From a virus, in the IMG/VR virus record IMGVR_UViG_3300027365_000001, positions 1 to 60,134 of that record: DNA of 60,134 nt; one strand, given 5' to 3'. Shown piece by piece: positions 22,653 to 39,028 of the stretch. A program made the translations under genes and the position numbers. The notes under the pieces were generated by a model. It did not search any database. It saw nothing but the letters and a program-made list of their open reading frames with translations, and had not been told where the DNA came from. Numbering within the stretch: position 1 is the stretch's first letter; each line of letters begins with the position of its first letter.

Positions 22653-22895
22653 TTATCGGGCGAGCGCATCCACCAGCCCGTTATGCCGGGTCTTGCAGTC
22701 GTGATAGATGGCAGCCCATTGGGTCATGGTGACCAGCACCTCGCCACCGGTGCCGTCATCGAGCTCCGGCAGCGCCTCCCGGCACTTCACCAGCAGGTTC
22801 TGCTGGTACTGCTTCGCCGCGGGCTGCGGAGTTGACGAGCACGCGGCCAGACTCAGGAATGCACACGTTGCGATAAACAGTGTTCTGGGTTTCAC
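22653..22895 (-). CDS. o-spanin (outer-membrane lipoprotein, Rz1-like), overlapped architecture
   Basis: MKPRTLFIATCAFLSLAACSSTPQ has a signal peptide plus an LAAC lipobox. The gene starts inside the i-spanin gene in another frame and extends past it. Confidence 0.75.
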   Translation of the reverse strand: MKPRTLFIATCAFLSLAACSSTPQPAAKQYQQNLLVKCREALPELDDGTGGEVLVTMTQWAAIYHDCKTRHNGLVDALAR

Positions 22896-23145
22896 GGATC
22901 ACGCCCCTATCGATGACGGTCTGGTTGGCCTTCAGCTCGCCAAGGCGCTGCTCCACCTTGGCGGCGATGGCGGATTCCCGGGCCAGGGCCTGCTGCTCGA
23001 TGGCCGCGGCGGCGCGCTCGACGGCCAGGTTCGCGCTGTCTTCCTTCCAGCCATGCACCAGCCAGCCGGCGGCGAAGGCCGCGCTGGCGATGATCAGGTA
23101 GAGGTTCACGCCCCCCAGCGCCTTGGCGATCAGGTTATTCAGCAT
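22756..23145 (-). CDS. i-spanin (Rz-like)
   Basis: N-terminal TM segment (NLYLIIASAAFAAGWLV) followed by a coiled-coil periplasmic region. It lies directly downstream of the endolysin. Confidence 0.75.
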   Translation of the reverse strand: MLNNLIAKALGGVNLYLIIASAAFAAGWLVHGWKEDSANLAVERAAAAIEQQALARESAIAAKVEQRLGELKANQTVIDRGVIRETQNTVYRNVCIPESGRVLVNSAARGEAVPAEPAGEVPGGAAGAR

Positions 23146-24375: not shown

Positions 24376-24603
24376 ATGCTTGAAGACTTCGCCGCTCTCG
24401 GCATTCTGATCACCATCATCGGGTTCTTCGCCTACACGCAGGCGCCGGCACACTGGCAGACGCCGCTCGGCTTCGGCCTGATCGTGTTCGGCTGGGTGCC
24501 GGCAGGGCTGATCATCCTAACCCTGCTCAAGCACCCCGCTATCATGCTCCCTGCCCTGTTCATCCTCGGCATTCTGGTCAGTCAGCGGCGGCGCGCTTCC
24601 TGA
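24376..24603 (+). CDS. small integral membrane protein (75 aa), a lone plus-strand gene between two minus-strand late units
   Basis: AGGAGG-N5-ATG at 24376. Translation MLEDFAALGILITIIGFFAYTQAPAHWQTPLGFGLIVFGWVPAGLIILTLLKHPAIMLPALFILGILV. High GC3. Its last 26 nt overlap the 3' end of the giant gene. Confidence 0.65.
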   Translation: MLEDFAALGILITIIGFFAYTQAPAHWQTPLGFGLIVFGWVPAGLIILTLLKHPAIMLPALFILGILVSQRRRAS

Positions 24604-27600
24604 TCTTCTCCTGCTCGAGATCCTTGCCGACCTGCTCCGTGATCAGGTTGCGCAGCGAGCGCAGCCGATCGAGCTCCAGGCGCTTCGCCTCCCCACTCAT
24701 TTCCTTGTCGAGCTGAATGCGCTTCATGTCGGCGTTGATCTTCGCCAGGTCGCGGCGCACGGCATTGAGCGCCTTGCGCATGCCGAGCTCGCCGGCCTTC
24801 TCTTCAGCCAGCGCCGCGGCGCGCTTCTCGTCGCCGTACTTCTCCAGGTGCATCAGGTCGGCATAGGCGCGATCGGCCTTCTTCAGCGCCTCGTAGAAGT
24901 CGGTCCCGTAACGGGTGTAGGTCGGCTCCTGCGTCAGGTCGCGGTAGAAGCGCTTGATCGGCTGGTACTCGTGCCAGCGCCGGGCCGGCAGTTCCTCTCC
25001 CATCGCGCGGCGCCATAGGGTGTCGGCCGTCGCCACGGCAGTGGCACCTACCGAGCCGGTATAGCCCCTGATCAGGTGGTCGATCTGCACCGGCGACAGC
25101 GCAAGATCCTGGCCGCCGACGGCGCCGGCTGCAGCCTCCATGCCACGGCTCGCCGCATCTGCCAGACGCGACGTGTCCGGCCGGCTGCGCAGGCTCGGGC
25201 TCAGGCGCTCCATGGACTGGTCCTCGATCGGGCGGCCGGTGAACGAGTCCTTGTTCTTCCAGAACACCTCGACCGCCGGCTTCACGAGCTGCGGCGTCGG
25301 GTCGAAGGCGAAGGTATCGGTCAGCATGTGGCCGAGGCGCTGGGCGAACTTCTCGCCACCGACAGCAGGGTCGGCGAATTGCTCGGCCAGGCGCTCGCCC
25401 ATGGTCGCGATGGCGCCCACCTCGAACGGCTTCGGAATGAAGAACATTTCGTCGCCGATGCGGATGATCCAGTAGGTGTCGCGCTGCCAGTCCTCGAGCT
25501 TGCGATATTCGTCGTCGTCGTAGTTGTTGAGGAACAGGAGCGTGCTCGCCAGCGTCAGCGCACCGGTGACCGCCATGAATCGCGCGAAGGCCTGCCGGTC
25601 TGCCTTGGTGCCCTTGCCCATTGCGACCTTGGAGCCAGGCTTGAAGCCAGCCCGGTACAGCTTGTCGAGGCCCTGGATGCGCGCATTCAGGAACGGCACC
25701 AGATCGATCAGGATGCGAATGGCGATAGCGTCACCATGGGCCGAGAAGTCCATCAGGTCGCGCGCCTCGAAGGCAGCTTTCAGCTTGCCCTTCTCCAGGT
25801 TGCGTTCCCAGATACCGGCGCGGTTGATGTTCTCGGCGAAGTCCGTGACCGCGTGATACTTGCGCCAGGCGGTCAGCAGCGCGCCAGGGATCAGCTTCGG
25901 ATCGCGCAGCACCTTGGCCTTGCGCATGGAGACGGTCAGGCTCGCCTTGATCTCGTCGGCGTTCTGGCCATAGACGTGACCGAAGGAGAAGGCCCCGCCG
26001 CTCGCCATCATGCGCGCTCGGTTGTGGTCGTTCCAGTAGGTCAGCGCACCCTTGAACGCGGTCTTGAACGGCACGGCGCTGGTCGGCGAAGTCGCCATTG
26101 CAGAGAGCGTATCGCGCAGACCGTTCGCCACGACAAACTGCGGCGTAATGGTGGTCATGTTGGTGAAGAAGCGCTTGAAGGCGCGGCCAACCTTCATCAC
26201 CGGCGTATTCAGGCCGGCGCTCGATAGGGCGGAAACCGCCTTGAAGGTCAGCGGGTCGCTCACGTCGTACCACTGCTTCTCGCCATCAATCATGACGTAG
26301 GTGCTGGCCTTCTTGTCGCGCTTCGCTTCGGTGGTCTGCTCGGCAATGCCCAGCGCCTCGGCGTTCGCCATGGCCTGCGCCGCGGCCTGATTCTTGAGGC
26401 TCGCCTGAATCAGGTGGTGGAAGTTGAGCAGCGTGTTGTCGAGCAGGTCGTTCAGGTGCTGCTTGCCGCCCTTCAGCTTCTTGTAGGCCTGCTGCCGGGA
26501 CAGGCCGGAGCCGGCGCGCGGGCCGCCGATCGAGTCCTCGTCGATCACGCGGTAGAACGGAACGTAGAACTCTTCGGACCACAGCTCGCGCTGCGAGCGC
26601 TGCAGGTCGTCGAGCTCCTGCGTGATCGCGTCAAGGCGGTCCTGCGGCGTGTTGAGCATGTCGATCTTCATCGACTGCACAGCACCATTCAGCCAGTCGA
26701 GCAGGGCATCGTTCGCCATGTCCACCTTCTGCTGCGCGGTGTTCAGCATGTCCGGCGTGCGCGCGGCGTCGAGCGCGTTCTTGGCCTCGGTCAGCTGCTT
26801 GATGATCGCGGCCGGTGCCTCGTATTTGCGCGCGATGACCAGGCCGGCGTCTGGCTTGCTCATGGCCGGCTTGAGAAGCCCAGCCTGCTCGGCGATGCCC
26901 AGCACGTCGTCGCGGTGCTGCTGCAGCTCCTTCCAGGCCTTCGCGTAGAGGATGCTGCGGCTCTTGCCGTTCTCGAGCTTGCCGCCGGACAGCTTCATGC
27001 CGGCTTGGATCTCGGAGTGACTGAAGAGGTTTTCGCGGCCTTGCTTGAACAGCTTGTTGGCGCGGTTCGCCGCGATCCACCCCATGAAACGGTCGATCTC
27101 CGCCGGAGACCCAAGACTGCGCAGCGTTGCGGCGAGGCCTTGGGTTCCTTCGCGCACGTCGATGACCTTTTCCTTCGGATCGAGGTAGATCCTGCCGGCA
27201 TCCATCATGGCGGAGACGGCACCGCCTGCGGCATGGCTCATGCGCGCCAGCACCCACGAGCTCGAGGCGATCGAGCCTTCCAGCGTATCGGCACCCAGCA
27301 GCGCCTGGTCGTTGCGCAGTAGCGCGGCGTAGCGGTCGACGCCAGCTTGGCGGATGCGCAGGCCAAGGTTATCGGTCAGCTGGTCGAAGCGATCGCGCAG
27401 GCGCTGCGGCAGACTGGTCGGCCCGATCTTGTCGAGGAAGTCCTTCTGCGACTGGTTCAGGTCGTTGAAGGCCTCGGACGGTCGGACGCTGTAGCGGATG
27501 TCGGCATTCTCTGGGTCGAAGGTGCCGACGTTGCCGATGGCAGACTTGATCTGCTCGGGGCGGAAGGCGACGTACTGAATCGGCCCGCTACCATCCGCCC

Positions 27601-30600
27601 AGCCCTTCAGGATCACGCCGTCGTGTCCGTCAAACTGAGCGGACTTGATCATTTCCTCGATCTCGAATGCCGCCACAAGCCCGGCATTGGCACCGCCCAC
27701 GTCGATGACAGCCGGATTCTGCAGCGATAGATAAACCGGCATGACATTGGCTCCCTCGGAGCCAGCAATGAACCCCTCTTCGTCTCTGAACTCTCGCCCA
27801 GCACTCTCCGCATATCGATCGGCATACTCGGTCAGCGGCGTGAAATAGAAGCCCGGCAGCTCAATATGCTTCGCTCTTACCTTCTTGGAGAACTCGCTGA
27901 AGTCGCTGGCCGTCCCGTGATAAACCACCAGTGGCTTGCCGTTCTCGTCGACGACTTTGCTCGATCCAAACCAGCGCTTGAAGGCCGGCGTCTCGGTAAT
28001 GCGCGTCGTGCTGAACCGCTCAGCAATCGGCCCGAACAGCTCGCCGCGACGATGCAGGGCGATGGTGATCAGCGCATCCTTCGCCAGGGCGCGCAGCTGC
28101 GCCGGCGTCACCTGGCCGATTTGGCGGCCGTAGCGGCTGAACATCCAGGCCTTGATAGCGCCGACCAGATCGTCGACCCACTTGCGGAAGGAAGACGGCA
28201 TGCTCTCGTATTCCTCGATGGCGTAGGCGCCGAACTCTTCCACCTCCATGCGGCGCGTGACGGCGCCTTGGGCCTTGGCATCGGCCACGCGGGCGCGGGC
28301 CAGGTCGAAGATTTCCCGAGCCTTGCCGCTCGACCGCTCGGCCTGGCGGTAGAGGCTGCCAAGGCGCCCCTGCAGATCCGCCCAGCGCTTGGAGCCGACC
28401 AGGCTCTCGACGACGGAGTGGAACATTTCGTGGAGAAGAACCGCGTTCGCGTTCTGCTGGGTCAGGTTGCTGGCGACCAGGTGAACCTTGCCGCCTGGCT
28501 CGGTCACCGCCTGAACGCCACGCTTCCCGCGCCCCATGTCCTTCGGCAGGGTGCTGCTGTTCGAGTGGATGACGATCAGGCCCTTCTCGACCATCTTGTC
28601 GACGATGACGCCGAACGGCCCGCGCGTGATGGCGGCGCGAACCTGGTTGACACTCAGCGGCGCCTCGCCGTCCTGGACGGAGTAGCGGATGTCGCCGCGC
28701 TGTTCGTGCAGCTTGTTCGCTGCCTCGCGCACCGCCTTCAGACGATCGCCTTCGTACTCGACGATCTCGATGCCGTTCTTCTTGAGGATGGCCCGCGCCT
28801 CGGCCGGCAGATTCTTCGGCACCACGGCGCCGGCGAACTCGTTCAGGCTCACGGCGCGCTGCGGCTTGGCCTCGAAATACGGAACCGGCGCATTCAGCAG
28901 AGCCTCGGCGGCCAGCATAGCCAGCCCGATCGGATCGCGTGGAGCATGGTCTGCTGCCTTGGCCAGCTCTTCCTGCAGAGCATCCTGGTTCTGCTTCAGC
29001 CGGCGCTCGACCTCGGGAATGCGCGAGTCGCCCGGCTCCAGCTTCTGAAGTCGGCCTGCCCACTTCTGAATCTCAGCCTCGATCGACTGGATCAGTGACT
29101 TGTCCACGGTGGCGGCGCCGCCCGCTGCAGCCTTCATGGCGGCCACGTCGAACTTCTCGGACTTCAGCGCAGCTTCCATCGCCGCGCGGTCGCGCTTCTT
29201 TTTCGTGCTGAACTTGGCGATTGCGCGCATCGAGGCATCCAGCGCCTCGAACGTGTCTGGTCGCCCGTCCCAAGTGGTGTGCTGGGTGAACTTAATCGCC
29301 GCGTCACGGTACTGGTCGAGCAGCTTTTCAGTGACCTTCTTGGCCTCTTCGTATTGCTGCGGATCGACGATGCTTTCCGCTGCAGCCTTGCGCATCTGCT
29401 CAACATCGGAGAACTCAATGGACGATGCAGCGCGAGCATTGCCGGCGCCGAAGGCCATCGTTTTCTCCTGGCCGCGCACAGGGCCGCGCGTCATCACGTC
29501 AACGATGTTGTCGAGCGTGTACGGTACTTTCTTGCGGCCTACGGTCAGCAACGGCTCCCCCATGACCGGGAGTATCTTGCCTTCGACCCATTGCTTGAAC
29601 TCAAGCTCCAGGTTGTTCTCTTCAAGCAGGCGACTGACCTGGGTGCGAGTTTCCCATGGGTCAACATCAGGGCCGCGCTTGGCTTTCTGCAGATCGCCCT
29701 TGAGCGTGAAGGCAGCCCATCCTGGCCGACCCATCAGGCGCTCTTTCACCTTTCCAGCCAGCGCAGGTCGCTTGGCGTACTTCTTGTCGATAGCTTCATC
29801 CAGTAGGCGCTCTACCTCGGCAACCTCTGGCGCTTCGTTCTGATCAAGCTCGGCGTAGCGATTGGCCTTATTGATCAGTTCCTCCATTCCAAGGATATCC
29901 GCCGGCGTGAAAGGAGAATCCAGGGTGGTATCGCGCATGGCAGGCTTCACGTCATGCCCTTTCTCGCGAAGGAACATGGCCATAGCTGCCGGGCTGCTCA
30001 TCCAGTCATCAATGGCGCGCGATCCATCGCCACGATTAACCATCGCATCGAACGAATCCATCACGCGGCGATCGTCGAACTCTTCAGAAATCGGCTTCAG
30101 CGGCTTGAGGATGGCATCTGCGTCCTTAATCTTGGCCTTGCGGAACTCTGGCTTAGGGAAGCGCACGGTGTAGGCGTCAGCGCTGAACACCGGCTCCTGC
30201 CGCGGATCGCCAAGATCCTTGGTGCCGATCAGGGTGATCTCGCCAAACCCGTCGACGCCGCCGGCTTCGGTGGTCACAACGCCAATGGACGGGACAGCGA
30301 TGCCGCCAATCTTGTCGGCGAAGGCTAGGTTCTCGGCGGACAGGTTGTGGATGGCGATCAGGTTGCGGTCGGCTTCAGCCGCTACACTGTAGCGCGGCCC
30401 CTGGTCGAGGTGCTTGGCGCGGATGAACCAGCCGGTTTCGCCGGCGGCGTTCTTCTTGCGGAAGGTGTAAGGGTCGATCTCCTTCGCAGCGTCCTGCGTT
30501 AGGTCGGTGCGGATGATGCCGCGCAGAACCTTACCCTTGGCAGTGGTGTGCTCGATGATCTCCTGCTTGGGCTCCGGCGTGCTGGTCGGCTGGCGATCCG

Positions 30601-33600
30601 GCAGGCTCAGGCTCTCGAGGCGATCGAAGAGCTCGTTGACGCTCTCGGCATTCGACAGGTCGATGTTGCGCTGCAGGATGCCCTCGGCATCGGCTGCATT
30701 GGCGTGCTTCTCGAGCACCAGCACCTGAGTGTTCACCGCGGTGCCGGCGCGCTCGAAGGTAACCGCCGGCATGGCGATCTTCGCCACGGTGTAGAGATCG
30801 GCCGCCTCTTCGCTCTCGAGGAAGGCATCGAGGCGCTTGTCGGCCAGGCCGCCGCGCGGGATCAGCGCCACGATCCGGCCGCCGTCGCGCAGGTGCTTCG
30901 CGGCCTTCGCCAGGTGCTCGGTAGATGTCTTGCCGCCGCTGCCATAGGGCGGGTTCATCACGATGGCGTCGAACTTGTTGTTGATGTGCAGCTGCTCGAA
31001 GCGATCGTTGACGATCCGGGCATTGCCGTTCGCCAGCGCCGCACGCTGCGACAGCTCGTAGCTCGGCTCCACCATCGTCACGTCGGACTGCTCGGGGAAG
31101 AACCGGGCGATGGCGCCATGGCCGGCGGACGGCTCCAGGGCCTTGTCGTTCGGCTGGATGTTCGCCCACTCCACCATCTTGAAGCCGACCGGCTCCGGTG
31201 TGGCGAAGTAGTCCTGCCCCTCGCGCTGGTCGCGGCGCTTGCTGTTCTTCTGCTGCGCCCAATAGAACGTCTTGGCGCGATCGAACGGGCTCGTCGTGAA
31301 GGCGGCCGACAGCTTGCGGTCGTAGTCCTTGCCGCCCTTGCCGTCCTCGGCGCTGGCAGGGAAGGCGTCGGCGTTCTGGTAGGCGTCGATGAAGGCTTCC
31401 TTCAGGCCGCGAGCCTCTTCGCCAAGCGCCAGGTTCTCGGCCGTCGATGCACGCTCGGCGATCTTCGATGCGAAGGCTGCCGCCTCCCATGCGGTGCCGG
31501 TGGTCAGATACCGGAAGATGGCATCGGAGGCCTGGCCGGTGCGGTAGATCCGGCCCTCGATCTGGGTCGCGGCAACCGGCTTGACCGGCATGCCAAGGTT
31601 GATCTCGACGCGCTGGTGCTTGCCGGTGGTGTCGTGCAGGCTCACGCCCTCGCGCCCGGCATCCGACTGCACCACGATCAGATTGCGACCGGAATCGTCG
31701 TCGTTGAACAGGTCGGCATTCGCCCGGCGCTGGCCCTTCGACACGGTACCGTTGAAGAACAGCGCGTCGGGGAAGGCCTCGCCAAGCGTCTCGATCGGCG
31801 AGAACAGGCCGGAGAAGTCCAGCTTGAACATGGGCTTGCCCAGCACGGAACGGGCAAGGCTCTTCACGTCAGGATCTGCAATCTCCCGAATGGCGTCCTG
31901 GAACGGGTTGAAGCCGCCGCCCTTGTTGAAGTCATGGAAGACCACGATCTTGCGGCCGAGCGCCAGGTGCTCACGGATGATCGGCACGGCGGCGCGGGCC
32001 TTCATGGACTCCAGCAGGTACATGCGGCGCTGGTAGTCGAACTGCTTGCTGACCGCCTCGTAGACTTCGCGGTAGCGGCCTTCCTCGGCCTCGCGCAGAT
32101 ACTTCAGGCCCTCGTCGATCTTGGTGCCAACGGCATCGTCGACCAGCACAAACTTGCGGTCATAGTCGTGCGCCACCTCGAGGCGGCGGCCGGACAGCGC
32201 ACCGGTGCTCTTCAGCCACTGGTTGAACTGCTGCTCCATCAGCTGCGAGTTCACGCCAGACTCCGGCGCCGTCAGCTTGTTGTAGCGCATCCGGTAGCCG
32301 AAGTGCTGCATCAGGAAGCGGTCGCGCGGACTGCCGGAGTTGTAGCCGCCGACGTTGCCTTGCGACTTCAGCAGGTCGGCCGGCTCGACGTAGTGGAACA
32401 GGTAACCCTCGGCATAGTCGACGTTTTTCGCGTAGGCGAACGGGGTCGCCGACAGCATAACCGTCTTCGGCAGGCTCTCCTGCTTTGCCCAGCGCTGGTT
32501 CCACTTCTCGCGGGCCGGCTGCTCGATGGCGTTCCACTTCTCGCGGGCCTTGGCTTCGGCGGCCTCGAGGGCGATGTAGCGCTCCATCGGCACGTCTGGG
32601 TTGCCGTTTGCATCGGCGCGGTCCTGCATAGCCGCCGAGAAGGCCTGCCACTCCTTTGCGTGACGCTGGCGCACCCAGCGGTAGAAGCCGGCATGGTGGC
32701 CTGTCAGGGCGCGCAGCTGCTCGAGCGCCGCGGTCTTGTCGCCGCCCTCGTTGCTCGACAGGTAGTGCGACTCGTCGGCGATCACCAGATCCCAATCGCG
32801 CTGCGCCAGGCTCTCGTTCTGGCCGAAGTTCGCATAGGTGGTGACGATCGGGCCGGTCTTGCCGTTGTCGTTGGTGTCGGCCAGCTGCTTGAGCTCGACG
32901 CCCAGCATGCGGGCGAACTTCACCCAATCCGAGGCGATCTTGTCGCTCGGCACGACGATGACGATGTTGTCCTTGCCGTCATTGATGAAGCGCTTGGCAA
33001 CGCCAAGGCCGGTCGCGGTTTTGCCGGTGCCGGTGCCGTTGGTGTAGAGGATGCCGTTGTGCCCGGCCAGGCGCTGCTCGGCCTTGAGCACGTCGTCGCG
33101 CTGCTCGGGCAGCAGCAGGGGAAGGGCGGCGTCGATGCTGGCCTTGTCGCCCCACTTGGTCGGGGCGTTCTGCGCCTTTCGCTGAGCCGCTAGACGTTGA
33201 TCGAGGTCGCCGGCTCCAGGCGCTTGAGCATCGTCAGCAACAGCTTCTTCTCGCTCCTGCTCAACGATCTGTCCTTGGATGCTATCGCCACCGCTTCCGG
33301 TGCGTTCAGGATCTCCGGCAGTGCTGCTCTCAGGCTGGAATTGCCCGTCTGCTCGATATGCTGGCTGATCGCCTCGTTCTCGGCCAGCAGTGGCGCCATC
33401 GCCTGGTAGGCGTTGATCACGCTGTCCGGCACCTTGTTCGCCGTCAGCGCCTCGGCCTGCCTGCCCAGCTCCTTCAGCATCTTGTCCTGCGGCATCGCCA
33501 TCAGCTGCCTGAACGACGGGTTGCGCAGCTCCTGCGTCCGGGCGATCTCGTTCCACACGCTCGCGGGAACCTGGTGCATTCAGGCCTCCTTGCGCAGGCG

Positions 33601-36600
33601 CTTGGCCCGCCGCTTCAGGCTGTGGTCCTTGTCCGTTTCCGCCAGGTGCTCCAGCGTTCTCGCCATCAGTTCGCGGGCTTGCGAAGATGTCTTGTTGCTG
33701 GCCGGCTTGCTGCTCTTGCCGTTGGAGTCGGTCATTGGTGCCTCTCAGGATCTCGGCGCCGGTGACTTCCGGCTCGCCAAACATATTGGTTCCAGGCTGG
33801 GACAGCTGGGCCTGCTCAGTATAGTACCGCAGCGCATCGGCAACCTTATCCCGGCCGCGGGCGCGCGTGAAGCTCTCGCCGCGGTAGAAGATGCTCATGA
33901 ATCCCAAGGTCACCGGGTCGAGTTCGCCGGAGAAGAAGTCATTCTGGCGCACAAGCTCCAGGATGGGGCGGCCTTCGGCGCGGGCCCGGCGGATCAGGTT
34001 CACGGCCTCGAGCAGGTTCGGAGTCGTGTCGACGCTCTCCGAGATCACACCCTCGCGTGCATCCTCACGCATCTTCGCCCAGCTGCCGGCCACGTCGAGC
34101 AGAGCGCCGCCGATGGCCTTGATGTCGGTGTCTGCGCTCTCGAAGAGATCGGTGATCAGCGTCTCGTCGCCGTAGGCGCTGCCAAGCAAGGCGGCCTCGA
34201 TGCGGCGCCGGCCGTCCTGGGACAGCATGCCGTCACCATCCAGGATGCGGCCACGGTCTGCCTTGGCGGCCACGTCGCCCACGAAGGCGCGCACGAAGTC
34301 GCGGTTCGCTGCGGCCTGCAGGTCGCCGCCACGATACAGGTGCAGGATCGGGCCCATCTTGCGGGCATCGGACAGGGCGCGCTCGGTCGAGCTCAGTTCC
34401 AGGGTGGTGCGGTCGTTCGCTTCCGTGGTGTAGGCGATCCGCTCTTCCATGGACATGGGCGTGACGCGCTCGCGCACCAGCACCGGCGCCTTCATGCCGG
34501 CCACGTCGTAGCCCTGGCTTGCCAGCCATTCGCGGTAGCGGTCGGCCATGCCGCGGGCATAGGCCTGGCGGATGGCAAGCGTCCGGCCGTTGCCGCTCTC
34601 GACAACGTTGTCGGGGGAAACGATCGGGGCGCCGTCTGTCGCGCTGGCGCTCTCGCCCAAGAGGCGCGGGTTCAGCTTGCTGGCGATGTCGTTGATCTGG
34701 TCGAGCGAGGCGGAGCGGGAGCGGTCGCGCGGCTGCAGCTCCTTCGGGTAGTCCGGGTTGATGGCGCCGGTGGCATCATTCGACGTGACCAGTTCGTCGG
34801 CCTCGATGACCTTGTGCTTTACCTCGAACTCGCGGCCTGCCGGGGTCGATACGGTTTCGCGCTTGGCGGCCGGTGCCGCCGGTGCGGTGTCGCCGGCGTC
34901 GAGCTGGCGCAGGGCGGCGCGAACCTCGTCCGGGCCGTCCATGCCTTCGATCGACAGGCCGGAATCCTCGATCATGTCGCGGGCGCCGTTATACCAGCTG
35001 CGTAGGTAGGGCCTGACCTTCTCGAGCGGCATGTCCAGGTCCGCCGCCATGGTGCGCGCGAACTCGGCGAAGCGGCGCACGCCGGCCTCGATGTGGAAGA
35101 CGGCGAGCTCGGTGCCCATCGCCAGGATCTCGGGATCGATGCCGCTGTTCAGCTGCGAGCCGTTCAGCTTCGCCTTCAGCTTGGCGCGTAGCTCCGCGGC
35201 GCGGTCGGCGGTCACCAGCTTGTTGCTGGCGCCGTACTCGGCAGGCTTGGTGACGGCCTGCTCGGCTGCTGGCTTCTGCTCGGCTGCCGGTTGGCGCATG
35301 ACGCTCGGGTCGATCACGGTGGCGGTGATGCCGTCTCCCACCTTCTTGGTAGTGACTGGCTTGGCTGCCTTGCGCAGCGCAATAGCCCCGGGCTCGCCAC
35401 GCTCTGCAGCTCCTTTAATTCCGTCGAAACTGAATGGCTGGCCAACAAGCTGCTCTACAACATCAGCCGGGATCTCGTGCTTCTCAGCAAGGCCAGCAAT
35501 TTCGGCGTCGGTCAGGCGACGATTATTTGCAATGGCATGTTCGGCAATGTCGGCAGCGAGCGGAGCCATAGAGCGTCCGGAATATGTACCGGAGAACTCG
35601 CGCGCAATGGAGCGAACACGGTCGGCATAGGCATCAGCGGTTTCAACTATAGGCTGACGCTTGGAGCCAGCAGTGATGCCGTCTCCTACCTTCTTGGTGG
35701 TGACGGGCTTATTGTCGCTCTCTGCAGGCCTCTCTGCGCTCTCTGCTTCATCACGCACCAGCGGCTTCAAGGTCGATCGTATGACTGGCGGCTGTTCGCC
35801 AAACAGGTATTCCTCTGCGCTGTCCTTGTCGGCTTGGCTTGGTCTGCCTAGGTTCGCCTCGAACTGGCGAGCATTGAACTCGTCGCCACGCGCGCGCGCT
35901 TCGTCAATGGCGTTCTGCATCAGCCACTGGTCCACGCGCTTGATCGTGTTAACAGCCTTGCGATTGCCATCCACGTCGATTTTCGGGAACGGCGTTGTCT
36001 GCCGGCCGCTGGATGTCGTCACCACCTCACCAGCGGCCAGCATCCCACCAACTTCTCCGCGGCGCGGTGCCGGCTGGGCTTGATCGCCAGCGGCAGCCAT
36101 GCGCCGGTTGAAGGTGGACATATCCATCTTCTCGGTGCGGGTGCCCATCTTCACCTTGACGAAGCCGTCGCCAACGTCGGTGATGGTGCCCTGCTGGCGG
36201 CCCTTGCCGAGCACGACGGCCTGGCCGACCTGCGGAGCGGATGCAGGCTGCCCAGCTGTCAAGGATTCCTTGACGGTTGCCTCGTCGCCGGCCTTGATCT
36301 TCTGATTCAGCTCGCCGAGGTGCTGCTGGATCGGCACAGCCTCGTATTTCTCGGTATTCAGCGCATCGACCTTCTTCTTGTCGAAGGTCTCCATGATGAC
36401 TTCGCCGGTTTCCTTGTTTCGGATCACCCAGCTCGCCGGCTCGCCCTGCAGGCTATTGGTCGGCTCGACCTTCGGCCGCTCGACGATCTCCTTGGCCGCG
36501 CTCACCGGCTCTTCCTGCTTCGGCCTGGTCAGAGCGTTGATGGCCTGCTCGATAGCCTTGCGGCGTTTGGTCAGGCGAGCGTGCTCGTTGCGAACCTCGC

Positions 36601-39028
36601 GCGGGCTTTCCTTGGTGATCTCAAGCTCTTTCGCCTGCTTGGCCACCGCCTTCAATTCGCCGCGCAGTTCAGCCTCGCTCATCTGGTCAAGGCCTTTCTC
36701 GGCCTCTGCTTGGATGCGCTCGCTCAGCAGGGGCGTGCGCTGGGAGGAAGGCTGCTCAGTGGTCAACTGCGGGTTTACAACTGGCGCAGTGTCGGCCGCG
36801 CCCTGCTCAGGCATGGCAGGCTGCTCGACGGCTGCCGGCTCTTCGATCGCCGACGCTTCCTCGATGGCCTCCGGCTCCGGTTGCGCGGCGGTCTGGCTGC
36901 GCACGATGTCGACGCCATCCTCGTGCGTGAAGTCGTAGGTGTTTCCATCCTCGGCGGTGACGCGCGCCGTCCAGCGGCCGTTGCCCTGGTCGACGTAGCT
37001 CTCCAGCGTACCCGCGACCTCTCCATCCGGAGCCACGACAGTGACCGGCTCGCCGGACTGCTGGATCACGCGCTCGGCCGCACGCGACAGCGGGCCCTTC
37101 GGCGGCTGCGGAGCGGCTTGCTGCGCTGCTGGCGCGGCGTTGTCGTTGACCGCTGCCGGTGGCACCTGCTGCGGCGCTTCGGATGCTGGCGTGGCCGGCG
37201 CAGCGCTCTGCGGAGTGGTGTCGGATTGGGTCGGGCCGGGCGTAGCGGTCGGATCGGCGACCTCGCCAAGGGTCGGTTCGACACGCTCCTGCGGCTGCTC
37301 GGTTTCGGTGCGCTGGTAGGCTGCACCACCCATGGCGCCGCCCATCACGCCACCGACAGCCAGACCGCCAAGGCCTTCGTTCACGACGCCTTCGCCGATC
37401 TTGCGGTTCGGGTCTGCCTTGCTGACGGCATAGTTCTCGGCCGCCTTCTGGGCCATCGACTGCGGCAGTTCCTCGAAGATGCCTTCGGCCACCGCGCCCT
37501 TGGCGACACGGCCGGCGAGGTTCGCCGATACGCGCCCGGTGATCAGGTTCGCCAGCGCCCGGTCACCCAGACCGCCGAACAGGCCGGTGGCGGTGCCGGC
37601 GATCAGGAAGCCCTGCGTGGCCGCATCCTCGGCGAGCTGCGCCCGGGCAGCCTCGAGGCTCATGCCTTCCGACATCAGCGACTGGATGGCCTCGGATTTC
37701 ACAAGGTCTTCCGGCTTGAGCTTCATGATCTCGTCGCGCACCTGGCGCGCGGTGCCGGCGCCGCCCATCAGGCCCTCGGTCACGCCGCCGGCGATGGTGG
37801 CGGTGCGTGCCGCGGCTGTTGCGGCGGCAGCCTGCGATCCACCCTTGGCGATGGCGCGCAAATAGGAAGCCTTGGCGAGGCGCCCGGCTGCCCCCATGGT
37901 CAGCACCGTTTCCGGCAGGGACTGGATGATGCCGCCGGCATAGGCGCGCGGATCGCTCCAGGCCGGGCCGAAGGTGCCCTTCTCGGAATCCCACCAGGCT
38001 TTGTTGAGCGCCTGCGATTGCTCGGGCGTCAGATCCTTGCGGGAGGCCTCGATGCTTTCGCGCAGCAGGGTTTCGGAGTCCTTGCCCTGCAGCCAGCGGT
38101 CGGCGGCATCGCCGGCCCGCACAATGCTTTCGCCCACCACCGGAATGCGGCTGACGAGCTCGCGCAGGTTCTGCGCTGCGCTGGTTGTGCCCATCCACAG
38201 GAGGTTGCCGGCATCGCTCAGCATGCCGCCATCGTCTGGCGTTTCCTGCGCCTGAGTCTGCACAGCCGGCGTCTGGGCTGCCGGTGCGGATTGCGGCGTG
38301 GTTGCGGCGACAGCCTTCGCGGCCTCGACCGGATCGGCGCCGGTCTTGATCATTTCCTGCTGCACGTCAGGGCGCAGCGGAGAAGGCGGCTCCTGGCCGG
38401 GCATCACGACCTTGTAGCGGCCCGGCTCCTTGGCATCGAGCTCGGCCTGGATGGCGGACAGGTCGAACTCTTCGGCCTCTTCGGCGGAAGCCTGGGCGTT
38501 CTGCATGAAGCCCTGGCCGATCTTGCCGGCCTTGCCCATCACGTCCTGCACATACTGGCGGGTCTTCGGGCCCCACTGCCTGCGATCGTCGCCGCCGTGG
38601 TGCGCCATGATGGCTTCTTCGAGGGTGTAGCCCTTGTCCAGGCGCTCGCGCAGCTGCTTGGCCGCGGCATGGATCGACTGCTTGGCGTCGAACGGATTGA
38701 TGCCGAGGCTGCTCGCGGTGCTGTCAAGGTACTGCATCAGGCCCTTGGCGCGGCCCCATTTCGTGCGCGCACCGACCGCGCTCGGATTGTAGCTCGATTC
38801 CTGCTGGCCAAGCGCGGCGAGCACGTTCAGCGGAACGCCATACTCGGCGCTAGCCTCTTCGAAGATCGGCTGGAAGTTCTGCGGCGGCATCAGGCCGCTG
38901 GTGCGCATGGATTGCGCGGCGCTGCGCGGTTCGGATCGCTCCGGGAGCTCAATCTTGGGCAGTTCGTAGCTCTTGGACTCTTCGATCAGCTTGTCGATGG
39001 GGGACTGGAGGAAGCGGTTTTCAGCCAC
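24578..39028 (-). CDS. giant polyvalent virion protein (4,816 aa): lytic transglycosylase + ParB-like + SF2 helicase + N6-adenine methyltransferase + HExxH metallopeptidase + ADP-ribosyltransferase-like + C-terminal ejection/membrane region
   Basis: GTG start at 39028 after GAGGG. SLT motif GQQESSYNP...GLMQ (~38500-38870). ParB-like KELQPRDRSR...ESGNGRTLAI (~34350-34820). Helicase motifs GTGTGKT (~33030), DESH (~32775) and QIEGRIYRTGQ (~31540). MTase motifs EPSAGHGAI (~31110) and MNPPYG (~30950). HEMFH at ~28430. FKRWFGSSKVVDENGKPLVVYHGT (~27930-27990) resembles ART-PolyVal. TM-like segment FMAVTGALTLASTLLFL near the C-terminus. Confidence 0.9.
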   Translation of the reverse strand: MAENRFLQSPIDKLIEESKSYELPKIELPERSEPRSAAQSMRTSGLMPPQNFQPIFEEASAEYGVPLNVLAALGQQESSYNPSAVGARTKWGRAKGLMQYLDSTASSLGINPFDAKQSIHAAAKQLRERLDKGYTLEEAIMAHHGGDDRRQWGPKTRQYVQDVMGKAGKIGQGFMQNAQASAEEAEEFDLSAIQAELDAKEPGRYKVVMPGQEPPSPLRPDVQQEMIKTGADPVEAAKAVAATTPQSAPAAQTPAVQTQAQETPDDGGMLSDAGNLLWMGTTSAAQNLRELVSRIPVVGESIVRAGDAADRWLQGKDSETLLRESIEASRKDLTPEQSQALNKAWWDSEKGTFGPAWSDPRAYAGGIIQSLPETVLTMGAAGRLAKASYLRAIAKGGSQAAAATAAARTATIAGGVTEGLMGGAGTARQVRDEIMKLKPEDLVKSEAIQSLMSEGMSLEAARAQLAEDAATQGFLIAGTATGLFGGLGDRALANLITGRVSANLAGRVAKGAVAEGIFEELPQSMAQKAAENYAVSKADPNRKIGEGVVNEGLGGLAVGGVMGGAMGGAAYQRTETEQPQERVEPTLGEVADPTATPGPTQSDTTPQSAAPATPASEAPQQVPPAAVNDNAAPAAQQAAPQPPKGPLSRAAERVIQQSGEPVTVVAPDGEVAGTLESYVDQGNGRWTARVTAEDGNTYDFTHEDGVDIVRSQTAAQPEPEAIEEASAIEEPAAVEQPAMPEQGAADTAPVVNPQLTTEQPSSQRTPLLSERIQAEAEKGLDQMSEAELRGELKAVAKQAKELEITKESPREVRNEHARLTKRRKAIEQAINALTRPKQEEPVSAAKEIVERPKVEPTNSLQGEPASWVIRNKETGEVIMETFDKKKVDALNTEKYEAVPIQQHLGELNQKIKAGDEATVKESLTAGQPASAPQVGQAVVLGKGRQQGTITDVGDGFVKVKMGTRTEKMDMSTFNRRMAAAGDQAQPAPRRGEVGGMLAAGEVVTTSSGRQTTPFPKIDVDGNRKAVNTIKRVDQWLMQNAIDEARARGDEFNARQFEANLGRPSQADKDSAEEYLFGEQPPVIRSTLKPLVRDEAESAERPAESDNKPVTTKKVGDGITAGSKRQPIVETADAYADRVRSIAREFSGTYSGRSMAPLAADIAEHAIANNRRLTDAEIAGLAEKHEIPADVVEQLVGQPFSFDGIKGAAERGEPGAIALRKAAKPVTTKKVGDGITATVIDPSVMRQPAAEQKPAAEQAVTKPAEYGASNKLVTADRAAELRAKLKAKLNGSQLNSGIDPEILAMGTELAVFHIEAGVRRFAEFARTMAADLDMPLEKVRPYLRSWYNGARDMIEDSGLSIEGMDGPDEVRAALRQLDAGDTAPAAPAAKRETVSTPAGREFEVKHKVIEADELVTSNDATGAINPDYPKELQPRDRSRSASLDQINDIASKLNPRLLGESASATDGAPIVSPDNVVESGNGRTLAIRQAYARGMADRYREWLASQGYDVAGMKAPVLVRERVTPMSMEERIAYTTEANDRTTLELSSTERALSDARKMGPILHLYRGGDLQAAANRDFVRAFVGDVAAKADRGRILDGDGMLSQDGRRRIEAALLGSAYGDETLITDLFESADTDIKAIGGALLDVAGSWAKMREDAREGVISESVDTTPNLLEAVNLIRRARAEGRPILELVRQNDFFSGELDPVTLGFMSIFYRGESFTRARGRDKVADALRYYTEQAQLSQPGTNMFGEPEVTGAEILRGTNDRLQRQEQQAGQQQDIFASPRTDGENAGAPGGNGQGPQPEAAGQAPAQGGLNAPGSRERVERDRPDAGAAQPVVQAADGDAAGQDAEGAGQAGRGADGEQGAGQRDQRLPGDGATAGRERGDQPAYRADGQFQPESSTAGDPERTGSGGDSIQGQIVEQEREEAVADDAQAPGAGDLDQRLAAQRKAQNAPTKWGDKASIDAALPLLLPEQRDDVLKAEQRLAGHNGILYTNGTGTGKTATGLGVAKRFINDGKDNIVIVVPSDKIASDWVKFARMLGVELKQLADTNDNGKTGPIVTTYANFGQNESLAQRDWDLVIADESHYLSSNEGGDKTAALEQLRALTGHHAGFYRWVRQRHAKEWQAFSAAMQDRADANGNPDVPMERYIALEAAEAKAREKWNAIEQPAREKWNQRWAKQESLPKTVMLSATPFAYAKNVDYAEGYLFHYVEPADLLKSQGNVGGYNSGSPRDRFLMQHFGYRMRYNKLTAPESGVNSQLMEQQFNQWLKSTGALSGRRLEVAHDYDRKFVLVDDAVGTKIDEGLKYLREAEEGRYREVYEAVSKQFDYQRRMYLLESMKARAAVPIIREHLALGRKIVVFHDFNKGGGFNPFQDAIREIADPDVKSLARSVLGKPMFKLDFSGLFSPIETLGEAFPDALFFNGTVSKGQRRANADLFNDDDSGRNLIVVQSDAGREGVSLHDTTGKHQRVEINLGMPVKPVAATQIEGRIYRTGQASDAIFRYLTTGTAWEAAAFASKIAERASTAENLALGEEARGLKEAFIDAYQNADAFPASAEDGKGGKDYDRKLSAAFTTSPFDRAKTFYWAQQKNSKRRDQREGQDYFATPEPVGFKMVEWANIQPNDKALEPSAGHGAIARFFPEQSDVTMVEPSYELSQRAALANGNARIVNDRFEQLHINNKFDAIVMNPPYGSGGKTSTEHLAKAAKHLRDGGRIVALIPRGGLADKRLDAFLESEEAADLYTVAKIAMPAVTFERAGTAVNTQVLVLEKHANAADAEGILQRNIDLSNAESVNELFDRLESLSLPDRQPTSTPEPKQEIIEHTTAKGKVLRGIIRTDLTQDAAKEIDPYTFRKKNAAGETGWFIRAKHLDQGPRYSVAAEADRNLIAIHNLSAENLAFADKIGGIAVPSIGVVTTEAGGVDGFGEITLIGTKDLGDPRQEPVFSADAYTVRFPKPEFRKAKIKDADAILKPLKPISEEFDDRRVMDSFDAMVNRGDGSRAIDDWMSSPAAMAMFLREKGHDVKPAMRDTTLDSPFTPADILGMEELINKANRYAELDQNEAPEVAEVERLLDEAIDKKYAKRPALAGKVKERLMGRPGWAAFTLKGDLQKAKRGPDVDPWETRTQVSRLLEENNLELEFKQWVEGKILPVMGEPLLTVGRKKVPYTLDNIVDVMTRGPVRGQEKTMAFGAGNARAASSIEFSDVEQMRKAAAESIVDPQQYEEAKKVTEKLLDQYRDAAIKFTQHTTWDGRPDTFEALDASMRAIAKFSTKKKRDRAAMEAALKSEKFDVAAMKAAAGGAATVDKSLIQSIEAEIQKWAGRLQKLEPGDSRIPEVERRLKQNQDALQEELAKAADHAPRDPIGLAMLAAEALLNAPVPYFEAKPQRAVSLNEFAGAVVPKNLPAEARAILKKNGIEIVEYEGDRLKAVREAANKLHEQRGDIRYSVQDGEAPLSVNQVRAAITRGPFGVIVDKMVEKGLIVIHSNSSTLPKDMGRGKRGVQAVTEPGGKVHLVASNLTQQNANAVLLHEMFHSVVESLVGSKRWADLQGRLGSLYRQAERSSGKAREIFDLARARVADAKAQGAVTRRMEVEEFGAYAIEEYESMPSSFRKWVDDLVGAIKAWMFSRYGRQIGQVTPAQLRALAKDALITIALHRRGELFGPIAERFSTTRITETPAFKRWFGSSKVVDENGKPLVVYHGTASDFSEFSKKVRAKHIELPGFYFTPLTEYADRYAESAGREFRDEEGFIAGSEGANVMPVYLSLQNPAVIDVGGANAGLVAAFEIEEMIKSAQFDGHDGVILKGWADGSGPIQYVAFRPEQIKSAIGNVGTFDPENADIRYSVRPSEAFNDLNQSQKDFLDKIGPTSLPQRLRDRFDQLTDNLGLRIRQAGVDRYAALLRNDQALLGADTLEGSIASSSWVLARMSHAAGGAVSAMMDAGRIYLDPKEKVIDVREGTQGLAATLRSLGSPAEIDRFMGWIAANRANKLFKQGRENLFSHSEIQAGMKLSGGKLENGKSRSILYAKAWKELQQHRDDVLGIAEQAGLLKPAMSKPDAGLVIARKYEAPAAIIKQLTEAKNALDAARTPDMLNTAQQKVDMANDALLDWLNGAVQSMKIDMLNTPQDRLDAITQELDDLQRSQRELWSEEFYVPFYRVIDEDSIGGPRAGSGLSRQQAYKKLKGGKQHLNDLLDNTLLNFHHLIQASLKNQAAAQAMANAEALGIAEQTTEAKRDKKASTYVMIDGEKQWYDVSDPLTFKAVSALSSAGLNTPVMKVGRAFKRFFTNMTTITPQFVVANGLRDTLSAMATSPTSAVPFKTAFKGALTYWNDHNRARMMASGGAFSFGHVYGQNADEIKASLTVSMRKAKVLRDPKLIPGALLTAWRKYHAVTDFAENINRAGIWERNLEKGKLKAAFEARDLMDFSAHGDAIAIRILIDLVPFLNARIQGLDKLYRAGFKPGSKVAMGKGTKADRQAFARFMAVTGALTLASTLLFLNNYDDDEYRKLEDWQRDTYWIIRIGDEMFFIPKPFEVGAIATMGERLAEQFADPAVGGEKFAQRLGHMLTDTFAFDPTPQLVKPAVEVFWKNKDSFTGRPIEDQSMERLSPSLRSRPDTSRLADAASRGMEAAAGAVGGQDLALSPVQIDHLIRGYTGSVGATAVATADTLWRRAMGEELPARRWHEYQPIKRFYRDLTQEPTYTRYGTDFYEALKKADRAYADLMHLEKYGDEKRAAALAEEKAGELGMRKALNAVRRDLAKINADMKRIQLDKEMSGEAKRLELDRLRSLRNLITEQVGKDLEQEKIRKRAAAD
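33190..33579 (-). CDS. embedded ORF-b (129 aa) in an alternative frame of the giant gene; unknown function
   Basis: AAGGAGG-N5-ATG at 33579. By hand count about 117 of 129 codons end in G/C, against roughly 40% for the giant frame over the same bases. The sequence looks helical and non-repetitive: MHQVPASVWNEIARTQELRNPSFRQLMAMPQDKMLKELGRQAEAL... Confidence 0.6.
   Translation of the reverse strand: MHQVPASVWNEIARTQELRNPSFRQLMAMPQDKMLKELGRQAEALTANKVPDSVINAYQAMAPLLAENEAISQHIEQTGNSSLRAALPEILNAPEAVAIASKDRSLSRSEKKLLLTMLKRLEPATSINV
33580..33735 (-). CDS. embedded ORF-a (51 aa, basic) in the same alternative frame, immediately upstream of ORF-b
   Basis: GAGAGG-N5-ATG at 33735, with an in-frame TGA four codons upstream (33745-33747). 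The stop TGA at 33580-33582 abuts the ORF-b ATG. Translation MTDSNGKSSKPASNKTSSQARELMARTLEHLAETDKDHSLKRRAKRLRKEA. Confidence 0.45.
   Translation of the reverse strand: MTDSNGKSSKPASNKTSSQARELMARTLEHLAETDKDHSLKRRAKRLRKEA

Follow-up and report, generated by a model that had tools for sequence, protein, structure and literature searches.

In this study, we describe an overlap between two genes in IMG/VR virus record IMGVR_UViG_3300027365_000001, of which positions 1 to 60,134 were analysed (60,134 nucleotides (nt); hereafter the window). Its minus strand carries at 24578..39028 a giant open reading frame (ORF) for a polyvalent virion protein of 4,816 amino acids (aa), with a GTG start and zero internal stops. 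A linker within it, at 33190..33747, holds two small ORFs in the +1 frame, which we call ORF-a and ORF-b. Comparative evidence strongly supports ORF-b as a genuine protein-coding gene, because its frame, start, stop and length are conserved, it shows purifying selection, its product is confidently predicted to fold, and it has free-standing homologues. We therefore read the segment, with a probability of roughly 0.85, as dual-coding: ORF-b would be expressed from its own start, and the giant frame would be translated through it as a linker.

A first-pass annotation of the window had described a shift of third-position G/C bias from the giant frame to the frame offset by one base over 33190-33735, and a computed three-frame sliding profile of GC content at third codon positions (GC3) bears this out. 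The giant frame lies at 0.75-0.98 nearly throughout and drops to 0.37-0.48 only at ~33810-33270, where the +1 frame climbs to 0.83-0.98; from ~33178 it is back at 0.93, in line with the claim that the bias is regained immediately after 33190. ORF-b (33190..33579, minus strand) comprises 129 codons plus the stop TAG (33190-33192) and encodes a product of ~14 kDa. Its ATG (33577-33579) follows a Shine-Dalgarno (SD) sequence, AAGGAGG (33585..33591), by 5 nt and is abutted by the TGA stop (33580-33582) of ORF-a (33580..33735, minus strand; 51 codons plus TGA). The ATG of ORF-a (33733-33735) lies 5 nt after an SD-like GAGAGG (33741..33746), which overlaps an upstream +1-frame TGA at 33745-33747. 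All of these signals, first listed by the earlier annotation, could be read off the sequence. An exact count puts G or C at the end of 117 of the 129 ORF-b codons (GC3 0.907), the number previously reached by hand, and T at the end of 3; ORF-a has a GC3 of 0.88 and 1 T-ending codon, matching the earlier estimate of about four for both ORFs. Over the same bases the giant frame has a GC3 of 0.44, previously put at roughly 40 %, and encodes a G/A/Q/D/R/P low-complexity peptide. When the giant gene was scanned for same-strand ATG-initiated ORFs of at least 45 codons in alternative frames, ORF-a and ORF-b alone combined an SD sequence with an alternative-frame GC3 far above that of the giant frame.

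We assembled a sample of 49 loci (GC 0.39-0.70; 43 distinct loci were used in some counts) from GenBank phages searched by blastn and tblastn, IMG/VR (44 loci), GTDB genomes and metagenome contigs. The genome scan used alignment A1 as query, a broader 64-sequence alignment being too diverse. GenBank matches were Serratia phage Parlo, Pseudomonas phage Skulduggery, Klebsiella phage vB_KpnP_ZX1, Ruegeria phage 45A6 and two Vibrio phages, and GTDB contributed loci from Methylomonas, Methylococcaceae, Polaromonas, Maridesulfovibrio and Tepidisphaeraceae; the sampled carriers include gamma- and alphaproteobacterial phages, prophages and metagenome-assembled genomes (MAGs). An intact ORF-b of 120-143 codons is present in all 49 loci, conserved in frame, start, stop and length, and begins with ATG in 48 of them. 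In each locus it occupies frame +1 of an enclosing ORF of 2,900-5,700 codons that is open across it, and the third frame over the same bases contains 3-19 stops. An SD-like core occurs at -17..-5 of the ORF-b ATG in 41/43 loci, compared with a frequency of 0.169 when positions in these giant genes are picked at random. The predicted products of the relatives share the N-terminus M-[HYF]-Q-[VA]-P-x-x-x-W-N. A frameshift artefact of sequencing or assembly could be ruled out, since the same arrangement recurs in 49 independent assemblies.

Deposited annotations show a single giant gene at this locus, named 'DarB-like antirestriction', 'PLxRFG protein' or 'N-6 adenine-specific DNA methylase', and the records of Parlo, Skulduggery, ZX1, the two Vibrio phages and Ruegeria 45A6 contain no separate ORF-b feature. 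Gene callers report ORF-b mostly where the giant frame is cut short by the end of a contig, and the family is therefore found in protein databases and not in genome annotations. On the Logan contigs L007, L008, L009 and L010, in which ORF-b was called, the contig ends 70-200 nt upstream of ORF-b.

A few individual loci stand out. In Pseudomonas thermotolerans DSM 14292 (NZ_KB822600.1; L063:10001-10099), ORF-b is reduced to a 32-codon remnant in which the N-terminal 19 aa are fused in frame to the C-terminal TATSINV, and the enclosing frame is open for only ~540 codons; this looks like a decaying prophage copy. A Thermodesulfobacteriota MAG (L059:9553-10539) carries a 121-codon ORF-b-like gene within an ORF of only 328 codons, with no helicase nearby and no Pfam match in the short enclosing ORF or its neighbours, and may represent an intermediate or decayed arrangement. 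In L026-L032 the ORF-b frame is open for 42-47 codons upstream of the conserved ATG, even at GC 0.40, and the giant frame in that stretch reads as ordinary protein (KSWYLAVKFDPRAS). Lastly, a 57.7-kb 'plasmid' of Comamonas thiooxydans (NZ_CP083940.1; H15), similar in size to these phage genomes, holds an embedded ORF-b under an 'LPD38 domain-containing protein'; it may be a phage-plasmid, or else a phage genome wrongly labelled as plasmid.

Alignment of related giant genes, which the first-pass annotation had proposed as a check, found the segment in 49/49 loci and placed the signal of purifying selection in the ORF-b frame. In 123 pairs from the ungapped 129-codon group, the Nei-Gojobori method (NG86) gave proportions of nonsynonymous (pN) and synonymous (pS) differences of 0.21 and 0.43 for ORF-b, with a dN/dS of ~0.32; for the same bases, dN/dS was 1.75 in the giant frame and 1.13 in the third frame. 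The 129-aa product had been said to read as a helical protein, and the AlphaFold2 model, built from a 31-sequence alignment, is indeed a compact eight-helix bundle (mean pLDDT, the predicted local distance difference test score, 90.5; predicted template modelling score, pTM, 0.84). Searching 1.84 billion representative proteins with a profile identified 536 family clusters at 50 % identity, 410 of them at E <= 1e-10; almost all measure 115-145 residues, with the match beginning at residue 1. Most family members are acidic (median pI 4.9), and the ORF-b product of the window has a pI of 8.1. Nesting, conservation, maintenance of the host frame and initiation signals of its own, the marks of an embedded out-of-frame overlapping gene, were all found for ORF-b. 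Of the two SD-preceded +1-frame genes originally proposed, ORF-b has thus stood (49/49 loci, dN/dS ~0.32, predicted fold); ORF-a has not stood as a general partner, being confined to one subclade.

The comparative data indicate that the giant frame across the overlap is also maintained by selection. A stop in the giant frame requires a T-ending ORF-b codon followed by one that starts with AA, AG or GA. When the synonymous codons of ORF-b were resampled from the giant gene's own usage, an open giant frame had a probability of 0.026 in the window and of <1/4000 in three independent low-GC clades (the Methylococcaceae-type loci L030-32; the Vibrio phages L004 and L006; L048). The earlier caveat that openness says nothing about selection was therefore too pessimistic, the scarcity of T-ending codons being itself anomalous. 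T occupies 2-10 % of ORF-b third positions (20 % in L048), compared with 7-38 % in the rest of the giant genes (window: 2 % vs 10 % elsewhere in the gene). It is also depleted where it is unable to create a stop (6.4 % at these non-risk sites), which fits avoidance of T-first giant-frame codons (Phe, Tyr, Trp, Cys, Leu-TTR, Ser-TCN) and thus points to selection on the amino-acid make-up of the linker. Consistent with such a make-up, G, A, P, D, R and S are over-represented in the giant-frame peptide, and L, I, M, F, Y, W and K under-represented. In 151/171 pairs, ORF-b has a lower pS than the neighbouring helicase region, which is single-coding. In the giant-frame alignment, the stretch over ORF-b has no gaps and is weakly conserved, and strong conservation (IDAALPLLLPEQRDDV…TNGTGTGKT) is back ~10 codons before the ORF-b stop.

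Loci with a GC of 0.39-0.45 (L004, L006, L030-L032, L048, L057 and L058) have an ORF-b GC3 of 0.53-0.68, and T at 5-8 % of its third positions (20 % in L048), compared with 33-38 % elsewhere in the gene. The overlap thus makes ORF-b a compositional island within such genes, and this could serve as a search signature for hidden genes.

To place the overlap in time, we considered codon usage and phylogenetic distribution, the criteria summarised in Pavesi 2021 (PMC8227390). Codon usage of ORF-b is nearer to that of the rest of the gene than is codon usage of the linker reading in 37/43 loci (mean r 0.52 vs 0.35), and free-standing relatives give the family the wider distribution. On these two grounds, the ancestral frame is most likely that of ORF-b, and the linker reading would be derived. 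The first-pass annotation had offered two origins, a pre-existing gene trapped in a fusion or a linker that was overprinted, and distribution and codon usage favour the former.

The free-standing members carry C-terminal extensions, lie in no long enclosing ORF, and end at, or run past, the domain boundary that corresponds to the ORF-b stop. P0156 (359 aa) starts 46 nt after an hsdM-hsdS-GmrSD-Fic-hsdR-(80 aa) array, P0122 (362 aa, on 7 contigs) lies 66 nt before hsdM-hsdS-DarT-Macro-hsdR, and P0183 (283 aa) is found 47 nt after an hsdR with an EcoEI_R_C domain. P0201 (288 aa) follows a split SNF2 helicase on an island that also encodes a type ISP enzyme and a PLD-helicase, P0146 (328 aa) comes after an integrase, and P0062 (201 aa) belongs to an integrase / AlpA / primase island. 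Long forms were located at L055:10001-11080, L064:10001-11089 (= L065:8529-9617), L068:842-1693 and L074:10001-10867. Three of them are co-oriented with type I restriction-modification (R-M) operons at distances of 46-66 nt, the inserts in these operons being GmrSD/Fic or DarT/Macro, and four of the six informative contexts adjoin helicase and N6-methylase restriction machinery, three of type I. The long forms could accordingly be unrecognised accessory genes of restriction islands. A homologue search with P0122 returned P0122 itself alone, and a plasmid search with it returned embedded copies only.

Taken together, we propose that a small gene ahead of a helicase gene was swallowed as the helicase ORF extended upstream in the -1 frame and became fused to N-terminal modules. 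Synonymous sites of ORF-b would afterwards have been constrained, since scarce third-position T bars both stops and aromatic or hydrophobic T-first codons from the linker. Today, ribosomes would initiate internally on the late mRNA, at the SD and ATG that belong to ORF-b, and yield a separate ~14-kDa eight-helix protein. The giant frame would provide a flexible low-complexity tether between variable N-terminal modules and the helicase / N6-methylase ('DarB-like') dyad. In the subclade of the window, ORF-a precedes ORF-b with abutting stop and ATG, and the two are probably translationally coupled.

What ORF-b does is approached here through its associations. A tblastn search with the first 387 residues after the overlap retrieved exactly the eight phage records in which ORF-b had been found; ORF-b therefore belongs with the helicase-methylase module. 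Dyads of the DarB type protect injected DNA against type I restriction (Iyer et al. 2017, PMC5512222). Because the long forms adjoin R-M systems and DarB-type dyads counter type I restriction, ORF-b would act in the conflict with type I restriction. We tentatively suggest that it is an accessory partner or regulator of helicase and N6-methylase motors, made in cis with the phage dyad, which seems possible at best. Less probable again is the wider notion that ORF-b founds a family that binds or regulates SF2-helicase / N6-methylase motors and is used by both sides of the restriction conflict. The bacterial long forms would then serve type I (and type ISP/SNF2) restriction islands as accessory genes, and phages would have hard-wired the short form, out of frame, into the tether before their injected anti-restriction helicase-methylase. 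If true, partner and enzyme would always be co-inherited and co-expressed, and perhaps assembled co-translationally on one mRNA.

A different function, as a stand-alone anti-restriction effector (such as a binder or a mimic, blocking the HsdR motor) or as a head-packaging or assembly chaperone of the giant protein, is only slightly less probable than the role of accessory partner or regulator. The predominantly acidic character of the family, the position of long relatives next to hsdR or hsdM and the location of the giant gene in an internal-virion/late block speak for it. However, ORF-b of the window is basic and resembles neither Ocr nor ArdA nor any other known fold, an effector expressed late would have to be co-packaged in order to act early in infection, and ORF-b is strictly linked to the helicase module and not to head genes.

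The dual-coding reading itself has to be set against other accounts of the giant frame. It is very improbable that the giant ORF is an annotation illusion, composed of an upstream gene, ORF-a/ORF-b and a separately made helicase, and open only for lack of T-ending codons. Such an account can draw on the finding that shuffling ORF-b's own codons in the high-GC window leaves the giant frame open in 56 % of trials, and on truncated contigs, where callers give ORF-b plus a separate downstream gene. Against it, the giant frame is open in 49/49 loci, when genome codon usage would lead one to expect this in 2.6 % (window) or <0.025 % (low-GC clades) of cases, and T is depleted at third positions that cannot yield a stop, as selection on linker make-up would predict. 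The upstream frame is also free of stops, so ribosomes must continue into the segment, as the first-pass annotation had argued. None of 43 loci has an SD-preceded giant-frame ATG within -45 to +120 nt of the ORF-b stop, and the helicase part would therefore be made only by reading through.

Recoding, whereby a programmed -1 frameshift close to the end of ORF-b would join it to the helicase, or termination-reinitiation would give rise to the helicase, can be given very little credence. The geometry would allow it, as the giant frame is -1 relative to ORF-b and conservation of the helicase module sets in ~10 codons ahead of the ORF-b stop. Yet a slippery heptamer X_XXY_YYZ in the ORF-b frame occurs in just 1/43 loci, at a position that is not conserved, and frameshifting was ruled out on this count. 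Termination-reinitiation was ruled out in turn by the want of a conserved restart codon, the GTG and TTG codons with an SD near the ORF-b stop being merely scattered (14/43 loci). In addition, the position of the ORF-b stop is conserved, and free-standing members end at or beyond the same boundary.

Several points weigh against our reading, or against parts of it. Alternative-frame GC3 and giant-frame GC content at first codon positions (GC1) are one measurement, and a G/A/P/Q/D/E/R-rich linker would raise the former unaided; composition alone is therefore no proof of coding, and it is the comparative data that supply it. Those data exclude for ORF-b a compositional mirage, in which only the giant frame is translated and its G/A/P/D/E/R-rich linker makes the +1 frame look GC3-rich and open by chance: the linker is indeed rich in G/A/P/D/R and both frames are equally constrained in ORF-a, but ORF-b keeps its ATG, stop and length across 49 loci that include genomes with a GC of 0.39-0.45, dN/dS is 0.32 in its frame vs 1.75 in the giant frame, a GC3 as low as the giant frame's 0.44 is abnormal in this genome, and ORF-b has a confident fold, non-embedded homologues and strong SD enrichment. 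Related sequences were pooled without regard to phylogeny, so the P values imply more independence than there is, although several independent clades each bear out the key results. A consensus scan, which is weak evidence, found no sigma-70-like promoter inside the giant gene, and expression of ORF-b would therefore rest on internal initiation on a translated late mRNA. The codon-usage criterion reverses in low-GC phages; in these exceptions, avoidance of third-position T pulls ORF-b away from AT-rich genome usage, and the avoidance is itself a trace of the overlap. The R-M neighbourhood comprises a sample of only 6-7 contexts, two of which show integrative-island genes only. In ORF-a, pN (0.22) and pS (0.29) are each equal in the two frames, and this ORF may be a by-product. 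As to function, ORF-b, ORF-a and the long forms have no match in Pfam, PHROGs, NCBIfam or PADLOC, and Foldseek searches with ORF-b against PDB and BFVD revealed no neighbour (best E >1, TM at most 0.32), in keeping with the earlier statement that the small proteins belong to no recognised family. No significant match, by profile or by fold, links ORF-b or ORF-a to established families of proteins for anti-restriction, anti-defence or defence (among them Ocr, ArdA and the PADLOC models).

ORF-a is restricted to the subclade of the window, where 10 IMG/VR loci carry it with 51-53 codons. There it retains its ATG, its length and a stop that abuts the ATG of ORF-b, the GAGG upstream is likewise conserved, and GC3 is 0.81-0.92 in its frame against 0.38-0.50 in the giant frame. 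In every locus the ATG relies on a rare T-ending Asn or His codon of the giant frame. Nine ORF-a proteins of 50-53 aa, 45-100 % identical, were called independently. The product had been described as having a K/R-rich tail, and its predicted pI of 10.4 agrees with a basic protein. Counting against it, substitutions are distributed over ORF-a codon positions 1/2/3 as 26/37/38 %, and its 5' half overlaps a conserved giant-frame motif, ILRGTNDRLQRQE. On balance, the conserved signals lead us to lean towards ORF-a being a lineage-specific, translationally coupled small basic protein. In L051, another +1-frame ORF, of 76 codons and with a GGAGGG SD, lies ~320 nt upstream of ORF-b (ORF-b start 5390); its GC3 is 0.71 compared with 0.46 in the giant frame, and it takes the position of ORF-a without being homologous to it. 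This ORF may represent a second gene that became embedded independently.

The host gene has the composition of a polyvalent, DarB-like virion protein, with the dyad, LPD and toxin-type domains and a late context. On the minus strand, Pfam identifies an SLT domain (aa 56-153) and, as the last recognised module 5' of the overlap, a ddrB-like ParB domain (PF18763, E 2e-35; 34466..34840, aa 1397-1521). The overlap follows (~aa 1761-1946 of the giant-frame translation), and after it, at 30845..33189, the Strawberry-notch-like SF2 ATPase and N6-methylase dyad, delimited by Pfam and giant-frame conservation and bearing the conserved IDAALPLLLPEQ motif. Further matches are ResIII (aa 1982-2135), Helicase_C_4 of the Strawberry-notch type (aa 2446-2539), an MTS methylase (aa 2634-2728), PBECR5 (aa 2881-3084), ART-PolyVal (aa 3694-3837) and LPD38 (aa 4505-4689). 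This map, together with the uninterrupted 4,816-codon frame, upholds the first-pass description of a stop-free segment between the ParB-like and SF2 helicase modules. The protein is no orthologue of P1 DarB, its order being helicase then methylase and not LPD36-methylase-helicase, and P1 was absent from the tblastn matches to the helicase segment among GenBank phages at 1e-10, just the 8 ORF-b-bearing records being returned.

Modules 5' of ORF-b vary by clade, with hypervariable linkers between them in the giant-frame alignment, and ORF-b always stands directly before the helicase; the variation therefore suggests a module-shuffling breakpoint of the giant genes just upstream of ORF-a/ORF-b. 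The 5' module is either of the ddrB-ParB type or of the 'SGIDPEILAIGTELAVFHIE' type (window ~33750-34460; homologous regions of L002, L003 and L012-L029). Giant-frame GC3 dips a second time, to 0.50-0.58, at window positions 35428-35878 (minus strand), where both alternative frames contain stops and no ORF is embedded; this is probably a module of other compositional origin. No alternative-frame ORF was found at this or the other GC3 dips inside the giant gene. Internal-virion and structural genes lie upstream of the giant gene and a holin-spanin cassette downstream, with identical synteny in Parlo, Skulduggery and ZX1; the window has an Rz-like spanin of ordinary type at 22756-23145.

If the dual-coding reading holds, its meaning is fourfold. 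A conserved, folded family of >500 clusters is missing from Pfam, PHROGs, NCBIfam, PADLOC and the survey of polyvalent proteins. Double-stranded DNA (dsDNA) phages would offer a clean case of two-frame selection, in which a giant multi-domain ORF arose by reading through an older gene, the off-frame reading becoming a disordered tether and domains being fused without extra DNA. The family would tie a phage counter-restriction module to type I R-M islands of hosts, a testable lead on phage-host conflict. Finally, a local collapse of GC3 with depleted third-position T inside a long ORF may be a usable detector of hidden genes.

We found no embedded gene reported for polyvalent, DarB-like or PLxRFG genes in the published literature, and the words overlapping, frameshift and out-of-frame are absent from the survey of polyvalent proteins (Iyer et al. 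2017, PMC5512222). The dyad proteins treated there (PMC5512222), P1 DarB among them, resemble the host protein in being virion-associated and combining an SF2 ATPase and an N6-adenine methylase with toxin-type and LPD domains; the present protein differs from P1 DarB in its helicase-then-methylase order and its Strawberry-notch-type C-terminal domain. The closest published analogue of the history we propose appears to be the modular-origin model for the overlap of the polymerase spacer and surface (S) gene in hepatitis B virus (HBV) (Pavesi 2021, PMC8227390). In both, a short older gene would lie between two parts that code for enzymes, and the long multi-domain ORF would read through it in another frame as a poorly conserved disordered spacer tethering its domains; in both, codon usage and phylogenetic distribution serve to tell the ancestral from the derived frame. 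Unlike in HBV, the carriers here are dsDNA tailed phages, the embedded gene is wholly internal (129 codons in a gene of >4,000 codons), ORF-b has SD-driven initiation of its own, and it bears no sequence relation to HBV genes.

Among tailed phages, lambda Rz1 is embedded in the +1 frame of Rz and encodes a lipoprotein partnered with Rz, both readings being structured. ORF-b resembles it as a same-strand, fully embedded +1 gene that has its own start signals, is missed by gene callers and may be functionally linked to its host gene; here, however, the host-frame reading is a predicted disordered linker and the embedded product a predicted soluble helical domain. Bacillus subtilis comS, 46 codons inside srfAB, is a lineage-restricted regulatory gene with an unstructured product. 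Like ORF-b it is a small out-of-frame gene within a giant multi-module gene on a common transcript; unlike it, ORF-b is a folded domain by prediction, with >500 sequence clusters and free-standing homologues. In the tiny, size-pressed genome of phiX174, overprinting (B in A, E in D) is thought to have created the small embedded genes de novo. There too one DNA is read in two frames and both are maintained, whereas in our genome of ~60 kb the embedded gene seems to be ancestral. Embedded out-of-frame genes are thus already known from Rz1, phiX174 and comS, and what is unusual here is the breadth of the family, the apparent selection on two frames, and a giant reading that is most likely the derived one.

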